Source of the DNA: Patescibacteria group bacterium
GTDB lineage: Bacteria > Patescibacteriota > Minisyncoccia > Phycocordibacterales > JAKFXT01
Length of the DNA stretch: 64,000 nt
Direction: 5' to 3'
Assembly: GCA_038063555.1 (NCBI GenBank)
Contig: JBBTUX010000010.1
Location: 22,936 to 86,935, forward strand
Shown here: positions 11,721-62,862 of the stretch, in pieces
Layout of the letters: every line of letters begins with the position of its first letter
Numbering within the stretch: position 1 is the stretch's first letter
The notes under the pieces: model-generated
Told to the model about the DNA's origin: nothing
Databases searched by the model: none
What the model saw: only the letters and a program-made list of their open reading frames with translations
Made by a program: the position numbers and the translations under genes

Positions 11721-12644
11721 TTATTTCTTTTTACCGTGGAACCTTTTATGTATTTCTTTCAAATGCGCATCCGTAACATGAGTATATATTTGGGTGGTGC
11801 CAATGTTAGCGTGGCCTAAAAGGGCTTGCACCGAGCGTAAATCAGCCCCATTACTCAAAAGGTCTGTCGCAAAAGCGTGACGAATGGTATGGGGCGTAAC
11901 AACAGAAGAGATGCCGGCACGGGCAACATAGGATTTTAAATGCCTTTGCACATCTCGAGGAATAATGCGATGAAGTTTGTTTTCCCTGCCATCAACAAAA
12001 AGAGCTTCCTCCATATCTTTTCTTTCTTTTAAATATTGCCACGCCGCTTCTTTGGCAGAAGGGGAGAGAAAAACCACTCGGACTTTTTCTCCTTTACCCC
12101 GCACAGAAATTTCATCGCGAGAAAGATCAATATCATTGTTAAGCGCACAGAGCTCGGAAACACGAAGACCGGTTGAAAATAAAAGTTCAAGTATAGCCCC
12201 ATCTCGCAAAAACATTCTTTTTTTGTGAGGATTTTTTTCTTTCTCATATGCTTCCTTAGGAGCTTTGAGCAGACGCAGAAGCTCCGCGGGAGTTACCAAA
12301 TCAAGGTGGCGTTCAGGAAGTTTGGGCAATTCTATTTTTTCCGGAGAAACGGATTCTATGTCGCGCTTCCTTAAAAATTTTAGAAAAGCGCGAATGGCAA
12401 TAATGTAATAATTTTGCGTGCGACGCTTCATTGAATCTTTCCCCGTGCCGCTTTGCCTATTTAACCAAAGACGAAAATCGCGAATATTTTGCTCGCTAAT
12501 ATCACTGGCCTTTTTTATTTCCATTTGACCAAAATAGCGGGTCAAATATCTGTCGTAATTTTCAATTGTCTTAACGGCACGCCCCCTTTCTATTTCAATA
12601 TATTCCAAAAATTGTCTTTTTAGATTTTCAATTTCTGTTGCCAT
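11721..12644 (-). CDS. xerC: Tyrosine recombinase XerC/XerD family
   Basis: N-terminal core-binding domain. Catalytic region ...HTIRHAFATDLL...LGHANIGTTQIYTHV (R..HxxR..Y). Confidence 0.8.
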   Translation of the reverse strand: MATEIENLKRQFLEYIEIERGRAVKTIENYDRYLTRYFGQMEIKKASDISEQNIRDFRLWLNRQSGTGKDSMKRRTQNYYIIAIRAFLKFLRKRDIESVSPEKIELPKLPERHLDLVTPAELLRLLKAPKEAYEKEKNPHKKRMFLRDGAILELLFSTGLRVSELCALNNDIDLSRDEISVRGKGEKVRVVFLSPSAKEAAWQYLKERKDMEEALFVDGRENKLHRIIPRDVQRHLKSYVARAGISSVVTPHTIRHAFATDLLSNGADLRSVQALLGHANIGTTQIYTHVTDAHLKEIHKRFHGKKK

Positions 12645-13470: not shown

Positions 13471-13524
13471 TGTTTTCAAAAAAACCCTTGTAAAAATAAG
13501 GGAAATGTGCTAGTGTATAGGGTA

Positions 13525-13791
13525 ATGCTTACCAAGCGAAAGAAGGAAAAAGCTGTTAAATTCGTGCAAAAGCACGATAAGGACACGGGGTCGCCCGAAG
13601 TCCAGATTTCCATATTAAGTAAGAGAATTGATGAATTGGCGGGTCATTTGAAGAAAAACCCTAAAGACAAGCATTCCCGCCGAGGACTTTTGCAAATGGT
13701 GGCGGATAGACGCACCCATATGGCATATTTAAAGAAGAAGAGCGAAAAACGCTACGCTTCTGTCGTCAAAAAACTAGAACTTAGTAAGTAA
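13525..13791 (+). CDS. rpsO: 30S ribosomal protein S15
   Basis: 89 aa: ...DTGSPEVQISILSKRIDELAGHLKKNPKDKHSRRGLLQMVADRRTHMAYLKKK. Alternative upstream ATG at 13507. Confidence 0.85.
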   Translation: MLTKRKKEKAVKFVQKHDKDTGSPEVQISILSKRIDELAGHLKKNPKDKHSRRGLLQMVADRRTHMAYLKKKSEKRYASVVKKLELSK

Positions 13792-13796
13792 GCATT

Positions 13797-13828
13797 TTCT
13801 GCAAAATTGTGCCTACAATTTTGCAGAA
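13797..13828 (+). terminator. Perfect 14-bp-stem hairpin after rpsO
   Basis: TTCTGCAAAATTGTgcctACAATTTTGCAGAA. No T-tract, so may be a processing site rather than a terminator. Confidence 0.4.
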
Positions 13829-13829
13829 T

Positions 13830-13900
13830 GAGTTATGAGCCAGGTGAGTTAGGAGTTATGAATTTAAAAATCGTAACTCATATCTCTTAACTCTTACCTC
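13830..13900. repeat. 'Empty' copy of the GAGTTAYGA inverted-repeat hairpin element
   Basis: Left arm gagttatgagccaggtgagttaggagttatga, loop atttaaaaa, right arm tcgtaactcatatctcttaactcttacctc (reverse-complement units). Confidence 0.6.
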
Positions 13901-13975: not shown

Positions 13976-14587
13976 ATGAGTGTAATAAAACATAAGGAAC
14001 AGCGCGTTGGCATGTTTATTGATGCGCAAAATCTTTATCATAGCGCCAAAAATCTTTATCACGGTAAAGTAAATTTTGGACAAGTAGTGAAAGACGCTGT
14101 TTTTGGCCGTGAACTTATTCGCGTTATCGCTTATGTCATAACAACAGAAGCGGGAGATGAAACGGGTTTTTTTGAGGCCCTGACAAAAATGGGTATTGAG
14201 ATAAAAACAAAGGACCTGCAGATCTTTTGGGGCGGAGCCAAAAAAGCCGATTGGGATGTCGGGCTTGCGGTTGATGCAATTCGCATGGCACCCAAACTAG
14301 ACACAATTATTCTTGCAACGGGAGATGGCGATTTTGTCCCGCTAGTAGAATTCATGCGAAATAGTTTTGGTTGCCAAGTTGAAGTTGTTTCTTTTGGTAA
14401 ATCAACCTCAAGCGCTCTGAAAGAAGCGGCTGACGATTTCTTTGACCTCTGCGAGAACCCTAAAAAATATCTTTTAGGCGGTGGAGGGGGCGTAAGTAGA
14501 CGACCAAGAAAAGGATATCGCTCACCAGAAGAAATTCTTTCAGATGAAAAAGTAGAAGAACAAGAATTGGGGGAGAAAGATGAGTAA
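13976..14587 (+). CDS. NYN-domain (LabA-like, PIN-like) protein
   Basis: RVGMFIDAQNLYHSAK...ILATGDGDFVPLVEFMR are NYN/LabA hallmarks. Gly-rich, basic C-terminal tail. Confidence 0.65.
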   Translation: MSVIKHKEQRVGMFIDAQNLYHSAKNLYHGKVNFGQVVKDAVFGRELIRVIAYVITTEAGDETGFFEALTKMGIEIKTKDLQIFWGGAKKADWDVGLAVDAIRMAPKLDTIILATGDGDFVPLVEFMRNSFGCQVEVVSFGKSTSSALKEAADDFFDLCENPKKYLLGGGGGVSRRPRKGYRSPEEILSDEKVEEQELGEKDE

Positions 14588-14621
14588 AGCGAGCTTAAAG
14601 TTTTATAGCTTCTAGGTTTTT

Positions 14622-14649
14622 CCGCCAAAGGCGGATCCGCCTCAGGCGG
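14622..14649. repeat. GGCGG-family tandem palindromes (intergenic copy)
   Basis: CCGCCaaaGGCGGATCCGCCtcaGGCGG. A 19/20 match to the in-CDS copy at 56190-56209. Confidence 0.6.
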
Positions 14650-14686
14650 AAGCTTTAATACAAATACAAAAAATTCAGAGAGTTGC

Positions 14687-14724
14687 AAAACCCCTCCGCC
14701 TTAGGCGGAGGGGTTTTGTTTTTT
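14687..14724 (+). terminator. Rho-independent terminator built on the CTCCGCCTTAGGCGGAG palindrome
   Basis: aaaaCCCCTCCGCCttaGGCGGAGGGGttttgtttttt. Confidence 0.75.
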
Positions 14725-14795: not shown

Positions 14796-15134
14796 ATGTC
14801 CTGGTACAAAAATCTTTCGCCGGTTGAACAAGAATTTTTTCGAATGCAAGAAGAAAAAAAAGAAGAGGAGGCATTATTCACAGCTGACTCCGAACTGACA
14901 GACGAGAAAAAGTCTCCTTTCTGCTTATGCGGAGAAAAACCACAAGCTGGCTATTACATCAGACAGAATGACGAGGGAGAAACTGGTGAACACAAGCGGT
15001 GGCGTTGCGCTTGTACAAATACCGAGTGTCCAATTCTCATGTGGGAGGGTTGGCACAACACCAAGGGTGAAGCGTTATCCGATTGGGCAAAGTTCATAAA
15101 AAACGAAAAAAATAAAAAACCCAAAAAGAAATAA
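14796..15134 (+). CDS. Small Cys-rich hypothetical protein (possible zinc-ribbon), cassette bracketed by GGCGG-type terminators
   Basis: 112 aa. CLCGEKP...RWRCACTNTECP Cys pairs. Lys-rich tail. Confidence 0.45.
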   Translation: MSWYKNLSPVEQEFFRMQEEKKEEEALFTADSELTDEKKSPFCLCGEKPQAGYYIRQNDEGETGEHKRWRCACTNTECPILMWEGWHNTKGEALSDWAKFIKNEKNKKPKKK

Positions 15135-15154: not shown

Positions 15155-15188
15155 AGCCCTCCGCCTTAGGCGGAGGGCTTTGCTTTTT
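15155..15188 (+). terminator. Rho-independent terminator, same palindrome family
   Basis: aGCCCTCCGCCttaGGCGGAGGGCtttgcttttt. Confidence 0.7.
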
Positions 15189-31042: not shown

Positions 31043-31906
31043 ATGCACTATTCACCTGATGAGTTACAAAGAAAATTTGATTCTCTGCCTGAAGAACTAA
31101 GGGAAGCGATTACTTCTGTTGACTTTGCCAAGTCCCTGCAAGAAATTGGCAAAACGAGTGGCTTGCACTTAGACCAATTAGATCAACTTTTTGAAGAAGT
31201 CGGTTTTGTTTTACTTGGAATGACACACCCAAGCGAGTTTGGCAGAAAAATTGGTGTTTTATTTAATCTTCCAGAAGTTGCTAGAAACAGTTTGGTAAAA
31301 GAAGTTGATGAAAAAATATTTAAACCAATTAGAACGTCTTTAATGTCTCTTCACAGTAAAACACCAAAAACGACCAACGACTTACGACCAACGACTTACG
31401 ACAGACAAACAAATGAGGTCAAACCCCGAGAACAAGCAATTCCTCATGAAACTGACTATAGTATGTCGAGAGCTGATATATTGTCTGCAATTGAGAACCC
31501 TGTGACCAAAAAAGTTAACATCGATAACACTCCAAAAAGGAATGTAGAAACTAGTGACCCTCATCTATATTTGTCGGAGCATAATGAAATGATTCAAAAA
31601 ATGAAAATTGCTCCTTTAGCAGGAAACATAATTACTCCTAAAAAATCCTTGGCAGAAGAAGCTGTTTTGGTAGCCCAGAAAAAAGTGGAGGGTGACAAAA
31701 GGACTCCCTCTCCCGACAAATCGCAAAATCCCTCTCCAATAATAATTCAGAAAACGCCCCCCGCTCCACAAAATATTCAACCTTTAACAATAGCCACTTC
31801 TCCTTTGGAAAAATTGAGCAGTGTTGTCCGTATTCCCAGACAGTCTGTCAACATTACGACACCGCCTACAACAAAAGGTGTCGATCCTTATAGAGAGGTT
31901 GTTTAA
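31043..31906 (+). CDS. Hypothetical protein with in-frame tandem CGACCAACGACTTACGA repeats (PTTND/PTTYD) and Pro/Thr-rich C-terminus
   Basis: 287 aa. Repeats at 31371-31406. Confidence 0.45.
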   Translation: MHYSPDELQRKFDSLPEELREAITSVDFAKSLQEIGKTSGLHLDQLDQLFEEVGFVLLGMTHPSEFGRKIGVLFNLPEVARNSLVKEVDEKIFKPIRTSLMSLHSKTPKTTNDLRPTTYDRQTNEVKPREQAIPHETDYSMSRADILSAIENPVTKKVNIDNTPKRNVETSDPHLYLSEHNEMIQKMKIAPLAGNIITPKKSLAEEAVLVAQKKVEGDKRTPSPDKSQNPSPIIIQKTPPAPQNIQPLTIATSPLEKLSSVVRIPRQSVNITTPPTTKGVDPYREVV

Positions 31907-32340
31907 GAACCAACAACTGACGACTTACAACTAACAATGAGAAAATTCAAATTTCTTGACTGGCAGGTCTATAAAGACTCTCGGGACTTGTTTTCTGAAA
32001 TATTAAAAATTGTAAAAAAATTACCAAAAGAATATAGATTTGAATTGGGGAGTCAGGTTATTCGCTCGTCTCTTTCTATAACCCTGAACATAGCGGAAGG
32101 TAGCGGAAAAGAATCTGACAAAGAGCTTGTTCGTTTTATTGAGATAAGCCTGGGTTCTGCGTATGAAACATTGGCCTGTTTAGACTCAATGAGAAATAGC
32201 GAGTTGATAACCTTGGTAGAGTTTAACAATTTGCAAGAAAAAATTTCCTCTGTTTGTAATCAACTCGGCGGACTAAAGAAAAAAGTTGTCTTAACAGAGA
32301 AGTTGTAAGTTGTTGGTTGTTGGTTGTAAGTTATAATTAG
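31907..32340 (+). mobile_element. IVS-like inverted-repeat element carrying four-helix-bundle gene #1
   Basis: Left flank gaaccaacaactgacgacttacaactaaca. Right flank gttgtaagttgttggttgttggttgtaagtt (reverse-complement relationship). Located between two operon genes. Confidence 0.5.
31937..32308 (+). CDS. Four-helix-bundle protein (23S rRNA intervening-sequence protein family, TIGR02436/PF05635-like; Avd-like fold)
   Basis: 123 aa. ...SQVIRSSLSITLNIAEGSGKES...GSAYETLACLD is the family pattern (NIAEG..R/K). Confidence 0.7.
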   Translation: MRKFKFLDWQVYKDSRDLFSEILKIVKKLPKEYRFELGSQVIRSSLSITLNIAEGSGKESDKELVRFIEISLGSAYETLACLDSMRNSELITLVEFNNLQEKISSVCNQLGGLKKKVVLTEKL

Positions 32341-32343
32341 CTC

Positions 32344-32868
32344 ATGCAATATCAAGTTCCACAATTTATAGAGGTTGAGGACAAACTTTTCGGTCCACTC
32401 ACTTTAAAACAGTTTATTTACCTTGCTGGGGGGGTTGGCATCGCGGTTGTTCTCTATATTTTCATTCCCATTAAATTTATAGCCATAATTATAGCTGTTC
32501 CTTTTGTCGCTTTTGCTATAGCCCTTTCTTTTTATAAGATAAACAGCAAGCCGTTTATTTTCACACTGGAGGCAGCTGTTGGTTATTGGCTGAAAAACAA
32601 ACTATACATTTGGAAAAAAACAACAAAGAAGATTGAAGCCAAAAAAGAAATGGTTGATGAAGGTCCTTCCATAGAAACTCTTTTAGCCCCCCGTCTTTCT
32701 GACAGTCGTCTTAAAGATTTGGCCTGGAGTTTAGATGTTAAGGAGCGCCTTGATTCAAGCCCCTTGGCAAAATACAAAGAGAAAAAACTTTCATTTGAAG
32801 AAGAGGAGAAGGAGAGGGTCGAGTTCACTAAGAACTATGACCTGGGTGCAAAAGGTCATAGTTCTTAG
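32344..32868 (+). CDS. PrgI-family-like small membrane protein (VirB3 analogue of Gram-positive-type T4SS)
   Basis: MQYQVPQFIEVEDKLFGPLTLKQFIYLAGGVGIAVVLYIF..., then a second TM and a charged tail. Context upstream of VirB4. Confidence 0.4.
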   Translation: MQYQVPQFIEVEDKLFGPLTLKQFIYLAGGVGIAVVLYIFIPIKFIAIIIAVPFVAFAIALSFYKINSKPFIFTLEAAVGYWLKNKLYIWKKTTKKIEAKKEMVDEGPSIETLLAPRLSDSRLKDLAWSLDVKERLDSSPLAKYKEKKLSFEEEEKERVEFTKNYDLGAKGHSS

Positions 32869-33300
32869 AGTTAAGAGTTACGAGATATGAGTTATGAAAA
32901 AATTAAAGATTTTACCGACCTTAGAGTATGGCAAGAGAGTCACAAATTGGTTCTTTTGACATACTTATTAACTAAAAAGTTTCCTGCTGAAGAAAAATTC
33001 TCACTTACTAGCCAACTTCGTAGGGCAGTTGTATCTATAACTTCAAATGTTGCCGAGGGTTTCGGAAGACAAAGCTATAAAGAAAGGATACAATTTTATT
33101 ATATGGCTCAAGGTTCATTAATTGAAGTAAAAAATCAACTTTTAGTGGCAAGAGATATTGGATATCTTGACAAGATAAATTTTGAAAAAGTTATGGAACA
33201 ATCAAATGTCGCTCATCAATTATTGCAAGGATTAATTAGAAGTTCTAAAGAATATCTTACTCGTAACTCGTAACTCTTATCTCATAACTCATTTTATGGC
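32851..33300 (+). mobile_element. IVS-like inverted-repeat element (GAGTTAYGA units) carrying four-helix-bundle gene #2
   Basis: Left arm agagttaagagttacgagatatgagttatga overlaps the start codon. Right arm tcgtaactcgtaactcttatctcataactc overlaps the stop. Arms are reverse complements of each other. Confidence 0.55.
32887..33273 (+). CDS. Four-helix-bundle protein (23S rRNA IVS protein family) #2
   Basis: 128 aa. ...LRVWQESHKLVLLTYLLTKKFPAEEKFSLTSQLRRAVVSITSNVAEGFGRQSYKERIQFYYMAQGSLIEV is the canonical family sequence. Confidence 0.75.
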   Translation: MSYEKIKDFTDLRVWQESHKLVLLTYLLTKKFPAEEKFSLTSQLRRAVVSITSNVAEGFGRQSYKERIQFYYMAQGSLIEVKNQLLVARDIGYLDKINFEKVMEQSNVAHQLLQGLIRSSKEYLTRNS

Positions 33301-33928
33301 ACAACAACAAACAGGTTCTACGCAAGATTTTGTGCCTATAAAGGAGGTGCGTGATGGAGTTGTAATACTTAAAGATGGCGGTCTAAGAGCCATACTTTTG
33401 ACATCTTCCGTTAACTTCGCTCTAAAATCGCAAGACGAGCAGGGATCAATAATTTTTCAATTTCAAAACTTTTTAAACTCGCTTGAATTTCCTATTGAAA
33501 TATTTCTTCAGTCAAGAAAATTGGACATAAGACCATATCTTTCGCTTTTAGAAAATCGCTATCGCGAACAAGTGGTTGATTTGCTGAAAATACAAACTCG
33601 CGAATATATTGAATTCATAAAAAGTTTCACTGAAAGCGCCAACATTATGACTAAAAGTTTTTTTATAGTAATTCCTTACACTCCTCCAATTTTAACTTCT
33701 TCCTCGGTGGGAAACTTTTTCGGTGGCAATAAAAAACCTACCCCGCAAGATTTATCTAATCAATTTGAAGAACATCGAACTCAATTGGAGCAAAGAATCT
33801 CCGTTGTAGAACAGGGAATGGTGCGTACCGGAGTAAGGGTTGTGCAACTTGGCACAGAAGAAATAATCGAGCTTTACTATAAAATATTCAATCCGGGAGA
33901 GCAGGACAAACCAATGAAATTGTCGTAG
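33296..33928 (+). CDS. virB4: VirB4/TrbE-family N-terminal domain (gene split from the ATPase part)
   Basis: DFVPIKEVRDGVVILKDGGLRAILLTSSVNFALKS resembles N-termini of Gram-positive VirB4 proteins (PrgJ/TcpF type). 210 aa; 210 + 604 gives a typical VirB4 length. Ends in a perfect 18-bp hairpin. Confidence 0.5.
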   Translation: MAQQQTGSTQDFVPIKEVRDGVVILKDGGLRAILLTSSVNFALKSQDEQGSIIFQFQNFLNSLEFPIEIFLQSRKLDIRPYLSLLENRYREQVVDLLKIQTREYIEFIKSFTESANIMTKSFFIVIPYTPPILTSSSVGNFFGGNKKPTPQDLSNQFEEHRTQLEQRISVVEQGMVRTGVRVVQLGTEEIIELYYKIFNPGEQDKPMKLS

Positions 33929-33944
33929 ACAATTTCATTGGTTT
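33901..33944. repeat. Perfect 18-bp inverted repeat overlapping the stop codon of the VirB4 N-terminal ORF
   Basis: CAAACCAATGAAATTGTC-gta-GACAATTTCATTGGTTTG. Confidence 0.7.
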
Positions 33945-34095
33945 GGAGTTACGAGTTAAGAGACGCGAGTTACGAACAAGAAAGTCCCAAAAAATACTGA
34001 ATTTGGAGTATAATTTCAGTGTATGACAACAAATAACTTGTTGGGGTCTTTTGTTAATATCATTCTCATAACTCTTATCTCATAACTCTTCCCTT
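33945..34095. repeat. 'Empty' GAGTTAYGA hairpin element between the two virB4 ORFs
   Basis: Left arm ggagttacgagttaagagacgcgagttacga, ~95-bp core containing aatttcagtgtatg, right arm tcataactcttatctcataactc. No four-helix-bundle gene inside. Confidence 0.55.
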
Positions 34096-35910
34096 ATGGC
34101 TTTACTTGATTTTTTTAAATCCAAACCTAAAAACGAGCCGGGGTTAACGGCTATACTCCCTCAAGAGATTTATGAGTCCGGAGTGTTGGAGCTAAAGGAC
34201 GTTATAGCGCCTTCTGCTTTGAAGATTTCCCCGAAAGAAATAAATTTGGGAGAAAAAATCGTCAGAACTTTTTTTGTTATTTCTTACCCACGCTATTTGA
34301 CTGAAAGTTGGTTTGCTCCAATTATTAATCTTGATAAGGTTTTTGACGCATCTATTTTTATACACCCCATTGAAACTGCCAAAATTTTGCGACAATTCCA
34401 AAAAAAAGTGGCGGAGGTGCAGAGTCAAATACATGAGCGCGAAGAGAAGGGATTGGTTCGAGACCCCGTTCTTGATACGGCTTATCAAGACCTTGAGCAC
34501 TTGAGGGATTCTTTGCAACAAGCCCAGGAAAAAATTTTTGATGTTGGTCTTTATATTTCAATTTATGGCGATTCAAACCAAGAGTTGGACAAAGTGGAGT
34601 CCGAAGTTAAATCAATTCTTGAGTCAAAACTTGTTTATATGAAACCGGCTCTTTTTCAACAAGAGCAGGGTTTCCGAAGCGTTCTCCCCATTGGAACGGA
34701 TGAGCTTGGCGTTCATTCTAAATTAAATTCTTCTCCTCTTTCTAGCGTTTTTCCTTTTATTTCTTTTGACTTAACGTCGGACAAAGGGATTCTTTACGGT
34801 ATCAATCGCCACAACGCATCGTTAGTTCTTTTTGATAGATTTTCTCTTGAAAATTATAATTCCGTCACTTTTGCTAAATCTGGTTCGGGAAAATCTTATG
34901 CTACCAAGTTAGAGATTCTGCGAACGCTTATGTTTGACTCGGAAGTTATTGTGCTTGATCCAGAGAGAGAGTATGAGTATTTAGCCGAAGCTACAGGGGG
35001 ACGTTATTTTAATGTGTCATTAACGTCTGAACACCACATAAACCCATTTGATTTACCAATTCCAAGAGAAGATGAGTCAACGGCCGATGTTTTGCGCTCA
35101 AATATTGTTAATTTAGTTGGGCTGTTCCGTGTAATGATGGGAGGATTAAGTGCTGAAGAAGACGCTATTATTGACAGGGCAATTAGTGAAACTTATGCTC
35201 TCAAAGATATTACGCCGGATTCTGATTTTTCAAACATAGAGCCGCCTTTAATGTCCGACTTTGAATTAGTGCTGACAGGAATGGAGGGTGGTGAGAGTTT
35301 GGCGCAACGGCTTACCAAATACACCAAGGGAACTTGGGCCGGGTTTATAAATAGGCCGACAAATGTTGATATAAATAAAAAATTCGTGGTTTTTTCTGTG
35401 CGCGACATGGAAGATGAGTTGAAGCCCGTTGCCATGTATATTGTAATGCATTTTATTTGGAATGCTATAAGACGAGAACTCAAAAAACGTCTTTTGATAG
35501 TGGATGAGGCCTGGTGGATGATGAAATCCGAAGATACCGCTTCCTTTCTATACAGCTTGGTTAAAAGGGGGCGAAAATATTTCCTAGGAGTTGCCACAAT
35601 TACCCAAGACGTGGGAGATTTCTTAAAATCACCATACGGCATGCCCATTATTACCAACTCTTCACTTCAACTTCTTTTAAAACAATCACCATCCTCAATT
35701 GATGATGTGCAAAAAACATTTAACTTAACCGAGGAAGAAAAATATTTGTTGTTAGAAAGCGATGTGGGAGAGGGAATCTTCTTTGCCGGATTAAAACACG
35801 TGGCTATAAAAATAATCGCTTCTTATACTGAAGATCAAATTATAACGTCCGACCCTTCACAGATACTTTCTATTAGAAAAGCAAAAACCGAGCTTAGTTT
35901 GGCAAATTAA
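34096..35910 (+). CDS. virB4: VirB4/TrbE-family conjugal-transfer/T4SS ATPase, ATPase portion
   Basis: Walker A FAKSGSGKSYATK, ...VIVLDPEREY..., Walker B LLIVDEAWWM, and a C-terminal domain. Own ATG, in a different frame from the upstream ORF. Confidence 0.75.
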   Translation: MALLDFFKSKPKNEPGLTAILPQEIYESGVLELKDVIAPSALKISPKEINLGEKIVRTFFVISYPRYLTESWFAPIINLDKVFDASIFIHPIETAKILRQFQKKVAEVQSQIHEREEKGLVRDPVLDTAYQDLEHLRDSLQQAQEKIFDVGLYISIYGDSNQELDKVESEVKSILESKLVYMKPALFQQEQGFRSVLPIGTDELGVHSKLNSSPLSSVFPFISFDLTSDKGILYGINRHNASLVLFDRFSLENYNSVTFAKSGSGKSYATKLEILRTLMFDSEVIVLDPEREYEYLAEATGGRYFNVSLTSEHHINPFDLPIPREDESTADVLRSNIVNLVGLFRVMMGGLSAEEDAIIDRAISETYALKDITPDSDFSNIEPPLMSDFELVLTGMEGGESLAQRLTKYTKGTWAGFINRPTNVDINKKFVVFSVRDMEDELKPVAMYIVMHFIWNAIRRELKKRLLIVDEAWWMMKSEDTASFLYSLVKRGRKYFLGVATITQDVGDFLKSPYGMPIITNSSLQLLLKQSPSSIDDVQKTFNLTEEEKYLLLESDVGEGIFFAGLKHVAIKIIASYTEDQIITSDPSQILSIRKAKTELSLAN

Positions 35911-36455: not shown

Positions 36456-37463
36456 ATGACTATTTTTACCAAAAAAATTTTAGTGATACTTGCCCTAAGC
36501 TTTTTAAGTTTTTTACCAACCATTGCTTTGTCCCAAACAATAGATTCTTATAAAGATTCTTTGCGCACGGTTATCACTCCGCCAAACCCACAAGCCAATC
36601 AAACGATATCAATTCATCTTGAAAGCTCTCTCATTGACCTTTCTCTTTCCACTATAACTTGGAGTGTTGATGGGAAAGTGATACTTAAAGGAAAAGACCG
36701 TAGGGTATTGGAAACAAAACTTAAAGAAATTGGCAAAGAAACAAATATTTTGATTTCTGTTAACAGTCCCCTTTATGGCTCTTTTGACAAAGAAATAACT
36801 ATAAATCCGACCTCAATTAGCTTAATTTATGAAGCCAATACCTATACTCCTCCGTTTTATAAAGGAAAAGCTTTGCCTTCCTCTGAAAGCGTTGTTACGC
36901 TACTTGCTTTGCCACGCTTTATAAAAAACAATGGAACCCCAATTTCTTCTAAAGATTTAATTTTCACTTGGAAAAAAGAGGGTGTGGTGGACGGCGCCAA
37001 TTCTGGTTTGGGCAAAGACACTTATGTTTTTATAACGGGTAGATTACCGGAAGACACACCTTTAATTGAGGTTAGCGCTTTATTCCCCGAAGAAAGTCTG
37101 CGTGGCTACTCTTCAATTTTACTCCCTTCGTTTAACCCAGAAATTATTGTCTATGAAAATAATCCAATCCTTGGCGTTATTTTAAATAAAGCGATGTCTA
37201 ATGACAATCTTTTGTCAGGTAAAGAAATGTCACTTGTCGCTTACCCATATTTCTTTTCCGGAAAAAACAGAGAGTCAATCAATTTTGAATACGCGTGGTA
37301 TATTAACAATGAAAAAGTGGCTGATATTCCCCAAAACCAAAGCGGGCTAACCATAAGAAGCCCCGAGGGCAGCGGAACTTCCGCTTTGAGAGTGTCGCTT
37401 TCCAATATTAGAAAAATTTTCCAGGTCGCTTCAACAAATTTATTGGTAAAATATGGAGAATAA
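36456..37463 (+). CDS. Hypothetical secreted protein (signal peptide)
   Basis: MTIFTKKILVILALSFLSFLPTIALSQ is a signal peptide. Start placed at 36456, immediately after the upstream stop; the longer listed ORF overlaps the previous gene. Confidence 0.45.
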   Translation: MTIFTKKILVILALSFLSFLPTIALSQTIDSYKDSLRTVITPPNPQANQTISIHLESSLIDLSLSTITWSVDGKVILKGKDRRVLETKLKEIGKETNILISVNSPLYGSFDKEITINPTSISLIYEANTYTPPFYKGKALPSSESVVTLLALPRFIKNNGTPISSKDLIFTWKKEGVVDGANSGLGKDTYVFITGRLPEDTPLIEVSALFPEESLRGYSSILLPSFNPEIIVYENNPILGVILNKAMSNDNLLSGKEMSLVAYPYFFSGKNRESINFEYAWYINNEKVADIPQNQSGLTIRSPEGSGTSALRVSLSNIRKIFQVASTNLLVKYGE

Positions 37464-37501
37464 AAACAGCTTTTAGGTTTCAGCTTTCAGCTTCTAGCTT
37501 T

Positions 37502-38166: not shown

Positions 38167-39390
38167 ATGTCTAAATCAACTGCCATCACAATTATTGTCG
38201 TCGTACTCTTGGCCATAAGCGGGGGCCTCGCTTGGTGGTATTTTTCATTGGGACAATCAGGAGTGGGGAACCAAAACAACGACAGTGGTGGAATAAATTT
38301 TTTCCCTTTTGGAAATAACAACGAACCAACGACCAACGACCAACAACTGACAACCGACAAAGAAAATCAAACGGAAAATGCTCCGGAAATTAGAGAGGTT
38401 TCGCGTTTGCCCGTTGCTGGGTTTTTACCACTTGTTGATAATTTAGGATTTCCTTTTGTTCGTTATGTTGACCAGGAAACTGGCAATTTATATGACGCCC
38501 CCCTTGAAATAGTTTCCAAAAAAAGAATAAGCAATACCACCATACCTAAAATCAGAGAAGTTCATTGGCTTTCTGGGGGAAATTCTTTTATTATGCGCTA
38601 CTTGGACGAAAAGGATTCTCTGCAAAGCTTTTATGCCACCCTAAAAGAAAATTCTTCCGCTGAAGGAAGTTTAACGGGACGCTTTCTATTAGAAAATATT
38701 TCTGACTTGAGTTTGTTTAGAACCAACAGTGCTTCAACAAAAATATTTTATTATTTAACAGAAAATTCCGTCGCCACAATGTTTTCCGCCGAAAGCGACG
38801 GTAGCAAGGCCACTCATGTTTACTCCTCCCCAATGAAAGATTGGTTACTTTATGGAATAAATGATTCTTTGGCTTATATTCAAACAAAGTCATCTGGTCT
38901 TGCCCCCTCCTTTGTTTTTTCTCTTAATATTAAAAATGGAACCGCAAACCCAACTCTTTCAAATTTTATTGGCCTTTCTATTCTTCCCAACAAAAAGGGG
39001 GACTTGATTTTATACTCCAGTACTCCTTTTGAATACCCTTTGCTATACATTTATGATGTAAACAAAAAAACTTCAACCCAAACCTCACTTAGAACTTTTG
39101 CTGACAAATGTCGCTGGAGTGAAAGTAATGTAAGTCGCATCATCTGCGCGGTGCCCACAAACATCCCGCGAGGAACTTACCCCGACGACTGGTATAAAGG
39201 CACAATATCTTTTAGTGATAATATTTGGGAAATTGATTCTGTTAGCGGAACGGCAAAGGAGTTGGTAAGTTTGTATAAAAATTCTTTCTTTTTTGACATT
39301 TCTTCTTTTTCTTTAAGCGACAAAGATAAATTTCTTATTTTGCAAGATAAAACAAACAACTCCCTTTGGAGCGTCCGCCTCAAACAATAA
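38167..39390 (+). CDS. Hypothetical membrane-anchored extracytoplasmic protein; contains in-frame CAACCAACGAC repeat
   Basis: 407 aa, N-terminal TM. Repeat at 38321-38358 encodes NEPTTNDQQLTTD. Confidence 0.45.
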   Translation: MSKSTAITIIVVVLLAISGGLAWWYFSLGQSGVGNQNNDSGGINFFPFGNNNEPTTNDQQLTTDKENQTENAPEIREVSRLPVAGFLPLVDNLGFPFVRYVDQETGNLYDAPLEIVSKKRISNTTIPKIREVHWLSGGNSFIMRYLDEKDSLQSFYATLKENSSAEGSLTGRFLLENISDLSLFRTNSASTKIFYYLTENSVATMFSAESDGSKATHVYSSPMKDWLLYGINDSLAYIQTKSSGLAPSFVFSLNIKNGTANPTLSNFIGLSILPNKKGDLILYSSTPFEYPLLYIYDVNKKTSTQTSLRTFADKCRWSESNVSRIICAVPTNIPRGTYPDDWYKGTISFSDNIWEIDSVSGTAKELVSLYKNSFFFDISSFSLSDKDKFLILQDKTNNSLWSVRLKQ

Positions 39391-53841: not shown

Positions 53842-54279
53842 ATGGTACTAAAAATAGAAAGTTTAAAAGAGTTAAAAAATTTCTCTAAGAAATTTCTTAA
53901 AGAATTAAATCCAGTAAAAACTGGCGCCACTATTTTAGCGCTTCAGGGAAATTTAGGAAGCGGTAAAACTGCTTTTGTAAAAGTTTTGGGAAAGAATCTT
54001 GGTATTAAAAAAACCATAATTAGTCCCACTTTCATTATTATGAAACTGTACGATATATCGTACAAAAATTTTAAAAAACTGATTCATGTTGATGCGTACA
54101 GATTGGAAAAAGAAAAAGAGTTGGAAGTTTTGGGTTGGCAGGAAATTTTGAAAAACCCAGAGAATTTAATTGCTATTGAATGGCCAGAAAATGTTTCAAA
54201 AGTTATTCCCCAAAGTGCCAAAAAACTTAAATTTAAATTTGTTGATGAAAAGACACGAAGTGTAAAGTCCGAGATATGA
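53842..54279 (+). CDS. tsaE: tRNA threonylcarbamoyladenosine biosynthesis ATPase TsaE
   Basis: Walker A ILALQGNLGSGKTAFVK...HVDAYRL. The last codons lie within a GAGTTAYGA repeat arm. Confidence 0.7.
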   Translation: MVLKIESLKELKNFSKKFLKELNPVKTGATILALQGNLGSGKTAFVKVLGKNLGIKKTIISPTFIIMKLYDISYKNFKKLIHVDAYRLEKEKELEVLGWQEILKNPENLIAIEWPENVSKVIPQSAKKLKFKFVDEKTRSVKSEI

Positions 54280-54355
54280 GTTACGAGATATGAGTTATGA
54301 TAAAGGCATAAGAAGGTGAACAATTTTTAATATCGTAACTCCTAACTCATAACTC
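54270..54355. repeat. 'Empty' GAGTTAYGA hairpin element between tsaE and polA
   Basis: Left arm gagatatgagttacgagatatgagttatga, loop ~32 bp, right arm tcgtaactcctaactcataactc, then aaaatttcagtgtATG (the polA start). Confidence 0.6.
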
Positions 54356-54368
54356 AAAATTTCAGTGT

Positions 54369-56831
54369 ATGGCAAAAATCTCAAAAAAAGAAAAAGCTGA
54401 AAGTAGCGCCAAAGCCAAGCGTTTGGTTCTCCTTGACTCTCACGCTATTTTGCACCGTGCCTTTCACGCGCTTCCAGATTTTTCTACAGGGAAAGGTGAG
54501 CCAACAGGAGCCCTTTATGGACTTTCAGCCATGCTCATTAAAATAATCAATGATTTAAAGCCAGATTATGTTGCCGCTTGTTTTGATTTAGCGGGGCCAA
54601 CCTTTAGACACGACGCTTATGAAGGATACAAGGCGAAGCGCATAAAAACTGATGACAATTTAATTACGCAAATAAATAGAAGCCGAGATATTTTCAAAGC
54701 GTTCAGTATTCCAATTTATGAATACGCTGGTTTTGAAGCCGACGATATGCTCGGGACAATTGTAGAGCAAGTATCCGCCAAAGGCGGATTCGCCTCTGGC
54801 GGAAAAGAAATAGATGTAATTATTGCTTCAGGGGACATGGACACTATGCAATTAATTAATGATAAAAAAGTAAGGGTTTACACTCTCAAAAAAGGAATAA
54901 ATGACACTATAATTTATGATGAAAAAGCCGTAATAGAAAGGTTTGGTTTTCCACCCAAACTTTTGCCGGACTACAAAGGGCTTCGTGGAGACCCGTCGGA
55001 TAATATTATTGGTATTGCTGGAATTGGAGAAAAAACAGCCACGGATTTGATTGTTAATTTTGGCACAATTGAAAATATTTATAAAAAGTTAAAAAAAGAT
55101 AAAGAAGCATTTGTTAAAGTTGGTATTAAAGAAAGAATAATAAAGTTGCTTGAAGAGGGGGAAGAAGAGGCGGAGTTTAGCAAGGAATTGGCCACCATTA
55201 GAAAAGACGCGCCCATTGAGTATAAAATTCCAAACGAAGAGTGGACCAAGCAATTTAAAATTGAAGAAGCACTGTCTTTGTTTTCTGACTTGGAGTTTAG
55301 GGCCCTGTCTCGGCGCATAAAGGAGGTTTTTGGAAAAAATGTCCCGGCACCCGAAGAGACGCCTGAAGGGATCGGGACCTCCACCTCTGAAAGTATTCAG
55401 AGCGTCGGGGAGAGTGACATAAAGGAAGTTGGCCTTGCTCTTTGGGTTATTAATTCTAATTACACTAATCCGACACAGGACGACATTTATCATTACGCTA
55501 AAACAAATGAATTTGAAAAAGCCAAAAGTATTATTTTTGCCGAAATAAAAAAGCAAAAGCTGGATTTTATTTACGAAAAAATAGAAAAACCGCTTATTCC
55601 CATTTTGAAAAAAATGCACGAAAGAGGCATTCAGGTTGATACTAAATATTTAAAAGAACTTTCTAAGGAATATACTATTGAATTGCAAAAGTTTGAGAAA
55701 GTTATATATCGTCATGCTGGTTTTGAATTTAATATAAATTCTCCGAAACAACTTGGTGAAGCGCTTTTTGAAAAAATGGGATTGGGTTTAAAAAATCAAA
55801 AGAAAACTTCAACTGGGCAAAAATCCACGCGCGAGTCCGAGCTTGAAAAAATGAAGGAATTGCATCCAATAATTGCCGAGATTCTTTCTTACCGAGAATT
55901 ACAAAAACTCCTTTCAACTTACATAGACAATATTCCAGAGATGGTTGGCGTTGACGGTCGTTTGCATTGCGATTTCATTCCGACCGGCTCTACCACAGGA
56001 CGCTTTTCTTCGGCAAATCCCAATATGCAAAATATCCCAATAAAAACAGAGCTAGGAAGGAGAATCAGAAGCGCTTTTATTGCCGAAAGAGGATTTCTCT
56101 TGGCATCCTTTGACTATTCACAAATTGAACTTAAAGTTGCCGCTTTTCTTTCGGGGGACGAAAAATTGATTGAAATTTTTTCCTCCGAAGGCGGATCCGC
56201 CTCTGGCGGAAAAAGGGCAGATATTCATACATCGGTCGCAGCCCAGGTTTTTGGTGTGCCAGAGGAATTGGTGGACAAAGAAATGCGTCGCCAAGCTAAA
56301 GTGATAAACTTCGGAATTCTTTATGGAATGGGAGTGAATGCTTTAAAACAAAATCTAGGAACAAATAGAGCGGACGCCCAGAAATTCTATAATGATTATT
56401 TCAAAAATTTTTCAGGTATTGCCAATTATTTAAACAAAGTGAAAGCGGAGGCCTTTAGAAAAGGTTATACGGAAACATTTTTTGGCCGCCGCCGCTATTT
56501 TGAGGGAATTAAATCACCCCTTCCCTTTATTCGTGCGGCGGCGGAGCGTATGGCTATAAATGCGCCAATTCAAGGGACGCAAGCGGATATTATAAAAATT
56601 GCTATGAGTAGAATTGAAGAAATGATTAAAAAAGAAGGATTGGAAAAAGAGGTTTTTCCGCTTCTACAAATTCACGACGAACTTATTTATGAAATAAAAG
56701 AGGATTTAATTGAGAGTATTGCTCCCAAAATTCAGAAAATTATGGAAGATGTAATTTTACCCAAAGAAATTTATGGAATTAGGCTTAACGCCAGCTTCTC
56801 AAAAGGTAAAAATTGGGGGGAGATGTATTAG
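54369..56831 (+). CDS. polA: DNA polymerase I (5'-3' exonuclease + polymerase domains) with two in-frame palindromic-repeat insertions
   Basis: 5' nuclease motifs (...LLDSHAILHRAF..., GIAGIGEKTA). Polymerase motifs DYSQIELKVAAFLS, RRQAKVINFGILYG, QIHDELIYE. Inserted GGFASGGK (54783-54802) and GGSASGGKR (56190-56209). Confidence 0.9.
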   Translation: MAKISKKEKAESSAKAKRLVLLDSHAILHRAFHALPDFSTGKGEPTGALYGLSAMLIKIINDLKPDYVAACFDLAGPTFRHDAYEGYKAKRIKTDDNLITQINRSRDIFKAFSIPIYEYAGFEADDMLGTIVEQVSAKGGFASGGKEIDVIIASGDMDTMQLINDKKVRVYTLKKGINDTIIYDEKAVIERFGFPPKLLPDYKGLRGDPSDNIIGIAGIGEKTATDLIVNFGTIENIYKKLKKDKEAFVKVGIKERIIKLLEEGEEEAEFSKELATIRKDAPIEYKIPNEEWTKQFKIEEALSLFSDLEFRALSRRIKEVFGKNVPAPEETPEGIGTSTSESIQSVGESDIKEVGLALWVINSNYTNPTQDDIYHYAKTNEFEKAKSIIFAEIKKQKLDFIYEKIEKPLIPILKKMHERGIQVDTKYLKELSKEYTIELQKFEKVIYRHAGFEFNINSPKQLGEALFEKMGLGLKNQKKTSTGQKSTRESELEKMKELHPIIAEILSYRELQKLLSTYIDNIPEMVGVDGRLHCDFIPTGSTTGRFSSANPNMQNIPIKTELGRRIRSAFIAERGFLLASFDYSQIELKVAAFLSGDEKLIEIFSSEGGSASGGKRADIHTSVAAQVFGVPEELVDKEMRRQAKVINFGILYGMGVNALKQNLGTNRADAQKFYNDYFKNFSGIANYLNKVKAEAFRKGYTETFFGRRRYFEGIKSPLPFIRAAAERMAINAPIQGTQADIIKIAMSRIEEMIKKEGLEKEVFPLLQIHDELIYEIKEDLIESIAPKIQKIMEDVILPKEIYGIRLNASFSKGKNWGEMY

Positions 56832-60481: not shown

Positions 60482-60979
60482 ATGAAAAAGGAGATTTGTT
60501 TAATACTGGACAATATTAGAAGTGCAGAAAATGTGGGCTCCATTTTCCGCACCTCGGACGCTGTCGGAGTTTCTAAAATTTTTCTTATTGGCATAACGCC
60601 TTGCCCCATAGATAGATTTGGCAGAGAAAGAAAAGACATTGCTAAATCTGCTTTGGGAGCAGAAAAAACAATTGAATGGGAGTATCGCAAAAACGCTGTT
60701 CAACTTTTGCGGGAATTAAAGAAAAGAAAATTCTTAATAATTGCACTTGAACAAGATGAGAAAGCCCTGGATTACAAAAAAATATCCGCCAGAGGCGGAC
60801 CAGCCTATGGCTGGAAAGGGAGGACAGCTTTAATCATTGGCAATGAAGTCACGGGAATTTCCAAAGAAATATTAAAAATGAGTGATTGTGTAGTCGAAAT
60901 CCCAATGAAGGGCAAAAAAGAATCATTAAATGTTTCCGTTGCGACGGGTGTTGCCCTGTATCGTTTGCTCAAGATATAA
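60482..60979 (+). CDS. SpoU/TrmH-family RNA 2'-O-methyltransferase; contains an in-frame GGCGG-type palindrome
   Basis: ...ENVGSIFRTSDAVGV...LIIGNEVTGIS...VEIPMKGKKESLNVSVATGVALY. The palindrome CCGCCAGAGGCGG-ACCAGCCTATGGCTGG (60786-60814) encodes ARGGPAYGW. Confidence 0.75.
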   Translation: MKKEICLILDNIRSAENVGSIFRTSDAVGVSKIFLIGITPCPIDRFGRERKDIAKSALGAEKTIEWEYRKNAVQLLRELKKRKFLIIALEQDEKALDYKKISARGGPAYGWKGRTALIIGNEVTGISKEILKMSDCVVEIPMKGKKESLNVSVATGVALYRLLKI

Positions 60980-61929: not shown

Positions 61930-62862
61930 TTAGGAACAGAGAAGTTTTTGATGTTTAGAACAAAAGTGAGCACTTCGGCCATTTACTATTTTTCGTAAAA
62001 TTACTCCTTTGCATTGGTGTTTTTGACAGGGCTTACCTGTTTTTCTGTAGGCCATGTGTTTATTTTGGAATTTGCCTTTTTTGCCATCAACATTTCTATA
62101 GTCAGAGGTTGAATCTCCCCCAAAGTGAATACCGCCCTTTAGGGCTGGTTTGATTGCCCGAAAAACTTTTTGCAAAAGTTTTTCGGGTAAATTTCGCACT
62201 CTCTCTTCTGGATTAACCCCAGAATGAAAAAGAATTTCATCAGAGTAAATATTGCCAATTCCAGAAATCACAGTTTGATCCATCAAAGCTGTTTTTATTT
62301 TGGTGTTTTGGCGTTTAAAAATTCGCTCCCTAAAAATTTTATATGTAAAATTTTTAGGGAGGGGTTCGGGTCCCAAGTGCGCAAGGTGAGGGGAATGAAG
62401 AAGTTTGTCGGTTTCAATAAGAGCAATTTTCCCAAATTTTCTCGTGTCGCAAAAAACAAGATGTTTTCCATTACTAAGCGTAAAAACAGCATGAATGAAG
62501 CGATTAAACGGGTTACGGAGAGCCTCGTTCTTTTCTTTTTCGTGTGGTATCCAAACTTCCTTTTTCTTTTTGTTGGTTGTTGGTTGTAAGTCGTAGGTTT
62601 TTTTGTAATACCCAACCATTAAATGACCAGTCATTTTCATATGAATTAAGACCGTTTTATTACCCGAAAGATTTATCAATATATTTTTGGCACGTCTTTT
62701 AATAGAAATTACTTTTTTATTTAATATTTCTTTTTTAAATTTAGAAAAGGCAATGGAGTGAAACATTTTTTCGAAGTCCGTCCAAACATCTTTTATCGAA
62801 AGCTTGGGTAGGACTTTCTGTAGTCCAGAAACGGTTGTTTGTACCTCGGGTAATTCGGGCAT
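61930..62862 (-). CDS. mutM: Formamidopyrimidine-DNA glycosylase; contains in-frame CAACCAAC-type repeat insertion
   Basis: MPELPEVQTTV... N-terminus, H2TH region, and a C-terminal zinc finger (CQKHQC...C..C). Insertion ...YDLQPTTNKKKKE... is encoded by 62570-62597. Confidence 0.85.
   Translation of the reverse strand: MPELPEVQTTVSGLQKVLPKLSIKDVWTDFEKMFHSIAFSKFKKEILNKKVISIKRRAKNILINLSGNKTVLIHMKMTGHLMVGYYKKTYDLQPTTNKKKKEVWIPHEKEKNEALRNPFNRFIHAVFTLSNGKHLVFCDTRKFGKIALIETDKLLHSPHLAHLGPEPLPKNFTYKIFRERIFKRQNTKIKTALMDQTVISGIGNIYSDEILFHSGVNPEERVRNLPEKLLQKVFRAIKPALKGGIHFGGDSTSDYRNVDGKKGKFQNKHMAYRKTGKPCQKHQCKGVILRKIVNGRSAHFCSKHQKLLCS

Follow-up and report, generated by a model that had tools for sequence, protein, structure and literature searches.

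Five palindromic elements, each built from two inverted arrays of tandem heptamers, lie between protein-coding genes in a 64-kb stretch of DNA (the window, by which we mean the whole 64,000 nucleotides analyzed) from a groundwater Patescibacteria metagenome-assembled genome from Hainich. A cassette of this kind consists of two inverted arrays of about four heptamers that enclose a gene for a small basic four-helix-bundle (4HB) protein or just a short loop, and it is wedged into the junction of two co-directional genes, between the stop codon of the first and the start codon of the second. With moderate confidence, we believe that these elements are promoterless, selfish palindromic cassettes of the intervening sequence (IVS) type, accompanied by derivatives without an open reading frame (ORF). 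They are best filed as an extra-ribosomal variant of the cassette formed by an IVS and its S23p ORF, and not as a miniature inverted-repeat transposable element (MITE).

Inverted heptamer arrays at gene junctions

The initial annotation of this DNA proposed a dispersed family of inverted repeats with three empty copies and one gene-loaded copy, based on the 9-mer GAGTTAYGA. In the window, GAGTTAYGA has 17 exact matches against 0.57 expected, a count reached by none of 100 shuffles; GAGWTAHGA has 26 (2.13 expected) and the two-unit pattern GAGNTANGAGNTANGA has 18 (0.12 expected). These 9-mers turned out to be overlapping views of a tandem 7-nt unit, GAG[T/A]TAN, with six conserved bases and one free base, a periodicity that had been missed; Tandem Repeats Finder (TRF) gave period 7 for every arm. 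Each arm has about four units, in reverse complement (NTA[A/T]CTC) in the case of the right arm, and is ~28–30 nt long. Four copies of this element type (E1 to E4) are present within the 64 kb, at the places and with the polarity first described, and a single GAGTTAYGA-type unit at 16328 inside pnp is at chance level. No further copies were found in the ~9 kb of the source genome past the right end of the window.

E1 (13830–13900, plus strand), recognized by motif matches and its fold, is empty. Its left arm (13830–13861, GAGTTAT GAGCCAG gt GAGTTAG GAGTTAT GA) is separated by a 9-nt loop (13862–13870) from the right inverted array (13871–13900), and it has rpsO (13507–13791) upstream and a gene for an NYN-domain protein (13976–14587) downstream. 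E2 (32868–33290, plus strand) is loaded, and was recognized by the motif and its PF05635/TIGR02436 cargo. Its left arm (32868–32897, GAGTTAA GAGTTAC GAGATAT GAGTTAT GA) and right arm (33261–33290) contain the start (ATG at 32887) and the stop (TAA, 33271–33273), respectively, of the 128-amino acid 4HB gene (32887–33273), and the PrgI stop codon (TAG, 32866–32868) also overlaps the left arm. The empty E3 (33946–34088, plus strand; motif and fold) has a left arm at 33946–33975, a 90-nt loop (33976–34065) and a right arm at 34066–34088, and sits between the separate genes VirB4-N (33296–33928) and VirB4 ATPase (34096–35910). The empty E4 (54271–54355, plus strand; motif and fold) has arms at 54271–54300 and 54333–54355 around a 32-nt loop; the tsaE stop codon (TGA, 54277–54279) is inside its left arm and the polA ATG is 13 nt downstream of the element. 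The arms thus run into coding sequence where this had been proposed, at the tsaE TGA and at the ATG and TAA of the 4HB gene.

A second loaded cassette, with a different heptamer, had escaped the initial annotation. It occupies 31905–32336 (plus strand; PF05635 cargo, TRF period 7), with a left array AAGAACC AACAACT GACGACT TACAACT AACA (31905–31936), a 4HB gene of 123 amino acids (31937–32308) and a right inverted array (32300–32336). The two 4HB paralogues of the window are each paired with their own unit family and with extra copies of that unit.

The copies now called E3 and E4 had also been reported to share a sequence that supplies the polA start codon. This was borne out for an exact 14-mer, AATTTCAGTGTATG, which is present at 34012–34025 (E3 loop) and 54358–54371 (right flank of E4) and nowhere else, and whose last three bases are the polA ATG; the ATG is at 54369, not at 54357 as first given. 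The E3 loop holds GGAGTATAATTTCAGTGTATGACA, which resembles the polA start region just outside E4 (54356–54371) as well as the TATAAT-N-ATG start region of VirB4-C in a sister genome. The E3 hairpin therefore has a start-region-like segment inside it. No sigma-70-like promoter was called in E3.

Folding of each copy, as the initial annotation had suggested, yielded a terminal stem in every case, with a 1-nt mismatch at about each seventh position and z scores of –2.8 to –4.7 relative to shuffles. The terminal stems are ~25–27 bp long in both loaded and all three empty elements: E1 folds at –21.2 kcal/mol (z = –2.8), E3 at –41.2 kcal/mol (z = –4.5), E4 has z = –4.1, the terminal stem of E2 has z = –2.8, and the 25-bp terminal stem of the second loaded cassette has z = –3.9. 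Stable hairpins at gene ends could be host RNA signals without mobility, namely terminators, attenuators or mRNA-stabilizing hairpins, and E1 does come after rpsO, a gene that in Escherichia coli is followed by a processing hairpin. Still, the stems are AT-rich and imperfect and have no U-tract; a test for intrinsic terminators (GC-rich stem plus U-tract) returned no terminator-like site at E1 or E3, and none of the elements was called terminator-like. Canonical GC-rich terminators with T-runs are present elsewhere in the window, at 14685–14719 and 15155–15179. In addition, some elements occupy positions, within the type IV secretion system (T4SS) operon and at the tsaE-polA junction, at which the spacers of relatives measure 2–6 nt. 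We consider host signals of this sort a very improbable explanation. Rfam found just five tRNAs and no rRNA in the window, and all elements lie between protein-coding genes. A reading of the elements as a defence system was dropped, as PADLOC gave no match.

We compared the window with the sister genome GCA_021731245.1, which has the same gene order and proteins that are 78–96% identical, and with a second relative, GCA_964541455.1. All five elements are absent at the orthologous junctions, the presence/absence polymorphism that the initial annotation had proposed to look for. In the sister genome, stop and start codon are 5 nt apart for PrgI and VirB4-N (the E2 site), 2 nt apart for the gene preceding the second loaded cassette and PrgI, and 6 nt apart for tsaE and polA (the E4 site). 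The rpsO-NYN spacer that harbors E1 is 184 nt long in the window vs 99 nt in the sister genome and 108 nt in the second relative. At the E3 site, the spacer between VirB4-N and VirB4-C is an unrelated 88 nt in the sister genome and 2 nt in more distant relatives (L123–L126). Three further assemblies from the same population carry an identical E4. An inverted-repeat-first scan, which was applied to both the window and the relatives, detected no period-7 hairpin in 61 kb of syntenic DNA from the two relatives. Judged by these alignments, the elements are lineage-specific gains, and their absence from the sister junctions is what a mobile element predicts.

The position of E3 had been described as inside a split virB4. 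E3 does sit between two virB4 parts, but it is not the cause of the split, which is ancestral. Across this Paceibacteria-like lineage, VirB4 is encoded as two separate proteins (~210 and ~605 amino acids); each of the 120 best homologues of the N-terminal piece stands alone, with a length of 208–226 amino acids, and in relatives the genes are already separate, 2 nt apart.

Inverted termini, several copies, small size and presence/absence polymorphism are also what is expected of the classical MITE or repetitive extragenic palindromic (REP) sequence, a non-autonomous hairpin that depends for its movement on a transposase acting in trans from elsewhere in the genome; the 4HB gene would then be a passenger. 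The window elements share with MITEs and with REPs and their bacterial interspersed mosaic elements (BIMEs) that they are small, multicopy, palindromic, intergenic and strain-polymorphic. However, at the three junctions where filled and empty sites can be aligned (E2, the second loaded cassette and E4) there is no target-site duplication; the upstream gene instead has its final one to four codons replaced, and the arm supplies the new stop codon. The arms are tandem heptamer arrays and not a unique REP-type palindrome, and the elements keep one plan with very different unit sequences, unlike what a single transposase with fixed ends would produce. The loaded form has room for the 4HB ORF alone. 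In a scan that covered some of the window's ORFs, neither Pfam nor NCBIfam gave a transposase domain in the two cargo proteins; the cargo is not a known recombinase, and no transposase or REP-associated tyrosine transposase (RAYT) was identified. A tyrosine recombinase gene at 11721–12644 occupies a position syntenic with a Phage_integrase gene in relatives. The assignment to the MITE/REP class made in the initial annotation was not sustained by these observations, and we regard it as quite unlikely.

The cargo and the wider 4HB family

The identity of the cargo was a further point missing from the initial annotation. The E2 ORF matches PF05635, titled '23S rRNA-intervening sequence protein' (E = 2.2e-36, 124.7 bits; cut-off 33.8), and TIGR02436, 'four helix bundle protein' (E = 6e-34, 116.5 bits; cut-off 24), and the ORF of the second loaded cassette matches PF05635 with E = 4.3e-28. 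The E2 protein also matches Protein Data Bank entry 2GSC (E = 1e-18), which is XCC0516, with five chains of that sequence; XCC0516 is described as a homopentamer (PMC4990558). 4HB proteins are basic, with a median isoelectric point of 9.25. E1, E3 and E4 have no ORF, and searches of their loops with blastn and tblastn against 85 4HB proteins gave nothing significant as an ORF remnant. The family is very large, with 21,550 clusters at 50% identity matching a single query. To our knowledge, it has not been assigned a function so far, and it is named after the few copies located in 23S rRNA.

We next consider how general the architecture is. A profile scan of metagenome contigs with three sequences from the candidate phyla radiation (CPR) yielded 80 loci, a sample biased towards CPR-like members, with 4HB genes 38–65% identical to the query. 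For each of the 79 members with both flanks, we asked whether the 5′ flank and the 3′ flank form an inverted repeat and whether its arms are in turn tandem arrays; the other ORFs in the same DNA served as controls. Such arms, of period 7 in most cases and otherwise of period 8, were present around 57/79 4HB genes (72%) vs 6/214 control ORFs (3%; p = 2.5e-35). The inverted-array architecture thus surrounds most of the sampled PF05635/TIGR02436 members, which makes it the rule for the 4HB family as a whole, an aspect that the initial annotation did not touch. The plan is constant, with a median of four units per arm, and unit sequences vary widely (GAATTAT, GTATTAT, GGAATCT, GTTGTTG, GGGGACT, AGCTATC, AGGGTTCA and others).

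Placement in these genomes follows the pattern of the window. The neighbouring genes are co-oriented with the 4HB gene upstream in 45 of 49 cases and downstream in 44 of 46. Measured from the left arm, the upstream stop codon lies at –16 to +23 nt in 36/45 cases; measured from the right arm, the next start codon lies at –17 to +31 nt in 31/44. The cassettes have no room for a promoter. None of 20 loci of sampled 4HB homologues had an rRNA context.

A separate scan of reference genomes for GAGWTAN arrays gave matches in Cyanobacteria, Bacteroidota, Planctomycetota, Chloroflexota, Saccharimonadia, Parcubacteria and others. Hairpins of this plan without a gene occurred in Nostoc, one planctomycete and two Saccharimonadia, and loaded copies in one Bacteroidia and one Nostoc genome; the consistent arrangement of arms and loop anticipated beyond the window is therefore present for both forms. 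On plasmid C of Trichormus variabilis ATCC 29413 and pNPUN01 of Nostoc punctiforme PCC 73102, genes with the annotation 'four helix bundle protein', AVA_RS28115 and NPUN_RS33770 respectively, lie between (TCAGRAK)n and (MTYCTGA)n arrays, in cassettes wedged between neighbour genes (540–975 of locus L215 and 525–970 of locus L216, respectively). In these plasmid cassettes the left arm puts AGGAG 9 nt before the 4HB ATG. The units GAGTTAN and TCAGRAK recur with very divergent 4HB proteins in different phyla.

Heptamer microsatellites are common in Cyanobacteria and Bacteroidota and their copy number varies, for example between Coxiella strains, so that the arrays could in principle be slippage-born microsatellites that fell into inverted pairs by chance and have neither function nor mobility. 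That reading leaves aside the inverted pairing, the defined arm length and the precise placement at stop/start junctions, as well as the strong association with one gene family seen above. The pattern within the arrays, in which the seventh position varies and the other six are kept, is moreover the opposite of that in fresh slippage copies. We regard slippage as extremely improbable, the least probable of the explanations considered here.

Other repeats in the window

Three perfect hairpins abut left arms in the window, all on the plus strand. A 14-bp hairpin (TTCTGCAAAATTGT gcct ACAATTTTGCAGAA) at 13797–13828 ends 1 nt before the left arm of E1; a 16-bp hairpin of the last PrgI codons (32828–32868) has as its last base the first base of the E2 left arm; and a 17-bp hairpin around the VirB4-N stop (33907–33945) ends directly before the left arm of E3. 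In the case of E2 and E3, part of the hairpin sequence is supplied by the final codons of the preceding gene. At the corresponding places of the sister genome, such pairing is missing for PrgI and shortened to 7 bp for VirB4-N. As a general feature of the elements these hairpins were discarded, since among 54 loaded elements only E2 of the window had one and the 53 others did not. Fold-back DNA synthesis at the entry break may have left them as a scar; alternatively, they may reflect a target preference for the 3′ side of a hairpin, or selection as stabilizers of 3′ ends.

A third unit forms a solo, one-directional array, (YAGSTTY)x5, at 37467–37501 (plus strand; TRF period 7, 5 copies). It fills nearly the whole spacer between a stop codon (37461–37463), from which 3 nt separate it, and the ATG of a T4SS pilin gene (37502). 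This array is absent at the same junction of the sister genome, and the window has no loaded copy of its unit. Arrays of the second family also occur inside ORFs: one at 31369–31409 (AACGACY, plus strand) lies within a T4SS ORF and encodes TTNDLRPTTYDRQ, and others are at 38319–38361 in a T4SS protein gene and at 62563–62590 on the minus strand in fpg. In these two T4SS proteins and Fpg, the AACGACY/AACAACY arrays translate as PTT(N/D)D(L/Q)-like linkers. The array-encoded segment in the T4SS protein takes the place of a different linker in the sister genome.

An unrelated 35-nt GC-rich double palindrome (TCCGCCAAAGGCGGATCCGCCTCAGGCGGAA) is present at 14617–14651, 54770–54804, 56177–56211 and 60781–60815. 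Two of the copies are inside polA, and exactly there PolA has the in-frame insertions SAKGGFASG and SEGGSASGG relative to the sister genome, to which it is otherwise 81% identical. The polA palindromes resemble the Rickettsia palindromic elements, which insert in frame into essential genes. An ORF of 112 amino acids at 14796–15134, between the NYN gene and pnp, is flanked by two canonical terminators and has no Pfam match; the sister genome has no gene at this position.

Relation to ribosomal intervening sequences

The closest known counterpart of the window cassettes is the IVS of 23S rRNA with an S23p ORF, found in Leptospira, Coxiella burnetii, Brucella and Xanthomonas. Its cargo belongs to the same family, PF05635/TIGR02436, and as in the window, the ORF is enclosed by a long stem of paired terminal inverted repeats. 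The IVS of Coxiella 23S rRNA has two to three tandem GACAGAT heptamers ahead of the S23p ORF, within the terminal stem; the stem is cut by RNase III in vitro, strains differ in the number of heptamers and the ribosome-binding site of the ORF is poor (PMC4990558). The plan of heptamers and ORF is thus the same as in the window cassettes, and the host site is different: the window cassettes are not in a 23S rRNA helix (25 or 45) but between protein-coding genes. RNase III excision has been shown for rRNA IVSs only. PF05635 ORFs have also been recorded in insertions in CPR rRNA (10.1101/2024.02.27.582315). In the literature that we searched, which left out most subscription journals, no link of PF05635/TIGR02436 genes to flanking tandem repeats was described outside the Coxiella IVS. 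We likewise found no earlier description, in the searchable literature, of empty copies that share their arms with a loaded copy in one genome.

We propose that the cassettes are transcribed by read-through from the host operon, and that their arms would then pair in the transcript to form an imperfect stem with one unpaired base at about every seventh position. Such a stem would close off the insert and bring the upstream stop codon and the downstream start codon together, so that genes once 2–6 nt apart could stay coupled and the cassette could be tolerated. Like the stems of rRNA IVSs, that of Coxiella among them, it is probably a substrate of RNase III. As for the 4HB protein, it probably binds its own arrays or the stem, and would serve the element rather than the host.

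Several observations weigh against this explanation. Among 59 loaded elements, mismatches between the arms have no wobble bias on the sense strand (56 G.U vs 59 A.C), so the arms do not demonstrate selection for RNA pairing and are just as compatible with a constraint at the DNA level or from protein binding. In register, complementarity at the variable unit positions is only modestly higher (62% vs 40%), a comparison biased by the choice of register. GAGWTAN arrays are far commoner than the 4HB gene: among 120 genome loci selected by the array, a 4HB gene was ≤100 nt away in 1, and most of the arrays in these 120 fetched loci are one-directional. The arrays may be the primary entity, with the 4HB gene a passenger. 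With no recognizable trace of the ORF left in the loops, the descent of the empty copies from loaded ones is suggested only by their shared arms.

In part, these observations would suit a different explanation, in which a regulator or nucleoid protein binds DNA at the heptamers as half-sites, so that each inverted pair would form an operator. Position-specific conservation of the unit, with six fixed bases and one free, is expected of such sites, as are the missing G.U/A.C asymmetry and the solo one-directional arrays, seen at 37467–37501 and at most of the GAGWTAN-selected loci. There is also a precedent in Geobacter metallireducens, where 24, 21 and 8 inverted pairs of arrays (4 × 8-mer, 3 × 9-mer and 5 × 7-mer, respectively) lie between genes, for example between proB and proA, and were interpreted as putative global regulator binding sites, possibly for IHF/HU (PMC2700814). 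These three classes of inverted pairs, with three to five tandem units of 7–9 nt, a variable distance and an intergenic position, are built like the window elements, and the class 3 unit MTYCTGA is the arm unit of the Nostoc and Trichormus 4HB genes. The Geobacter sites were described as nucleotide motifs only, and that paper drew no link to 4HB proteins or IVSs. Against operators stands the fact that the sites are stop/start junctions within operons and not promoters, as also seen from the promoter search in E3. The window elements are recent insertions at unrelated housekeeping junctions (rpsO, tsaE-polA, T4SS) that are empty in the sister genome, and operators leave unexplained why a 4HB gene is located exactly between the arms in 72% of family members. 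We therefore consider operators unlikely, and this reading would merge with that of an IVS-type cassette if the binder were the 4HB protein itself.

Tandem 7-nt arrays in intergenic DNA have been described elsewhere. In Xanthomonas, GGGAATC arrays form 70–75 convergent inverted pairs (PMC4692102), and most TAACTGA arrays of Beggiatoaceae, Cyanobacteria and Bacteroidetes end within a few nt of a start codon (PMC4679880), as do the right arms and the solo array in the window; the right-arm unit TAACTCN differs from TAACTGA by one base. Unlike the window elements, the Xanthomonas and TAACTGA arrays and the short tandemly repeated repetitive (STRR)/GGGGAYT arrays of Nostoc are mostly one-directional, can be much longer and have no cargo gene noted, and the roles proposed for them are G-quadruplex formation or the binding of a translational regulator.

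The 4HB fold has a homologue in Avd, the basic pentameric barrel of diversity-generating retroelements (DGRs). This positively charged pentamer has been called 'similar to S23 ribosomal proteins', and the RNA that it binds consists of stem-loops in which bases are flipped out (10.1101/2023.10.23.563531). The E2 protein scores far below the cut-offs of the Avd families (NF033474, 21.7 bits, cut-off 80; PF22296, E = 1e-4, 23 bits, cut-off 40), the neighbours of the window 4HB genes are T4SS genes (PrgI and VirB4), and no reverse transcriptase or pair of template and variable repeats is near them. A more speculative proposal, which we hold to be rather doubtful, is that 4HB/S23p proteins are ring-shaped readers of tandem repeats, one pentamer sitting on about four to five units of 7–8 nt, and that the ring protein with its cognate array forms a single self-propagating module. 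A parallel is the protein TRAP, which binds triplet repeats. If true, such a module would unite rRNA IVSs, the cassettes at operon junctions and the 'global regulator sites' of Geobacter, and possibly also part of the heptamer arrays of Cyanobacteria, Xanthomonas and Beggiatoa.

Taken as IVS-type cassettes, the elements unite a set of 'hypothetical proteins' and several unexplained classes of intergenic repeats as one testable kind of selfish cassette, and carriers that can be cultivated and manipulated exist in Nostoc punctiforme, Trichormus variabilis and Geobacter metallireducens. The finding bears on the role of free-standing relatives of the DGR protein Avd, on the tolerance of inserts inside translationally coupled operons and on the origin of the intervening sequences of rRNA.

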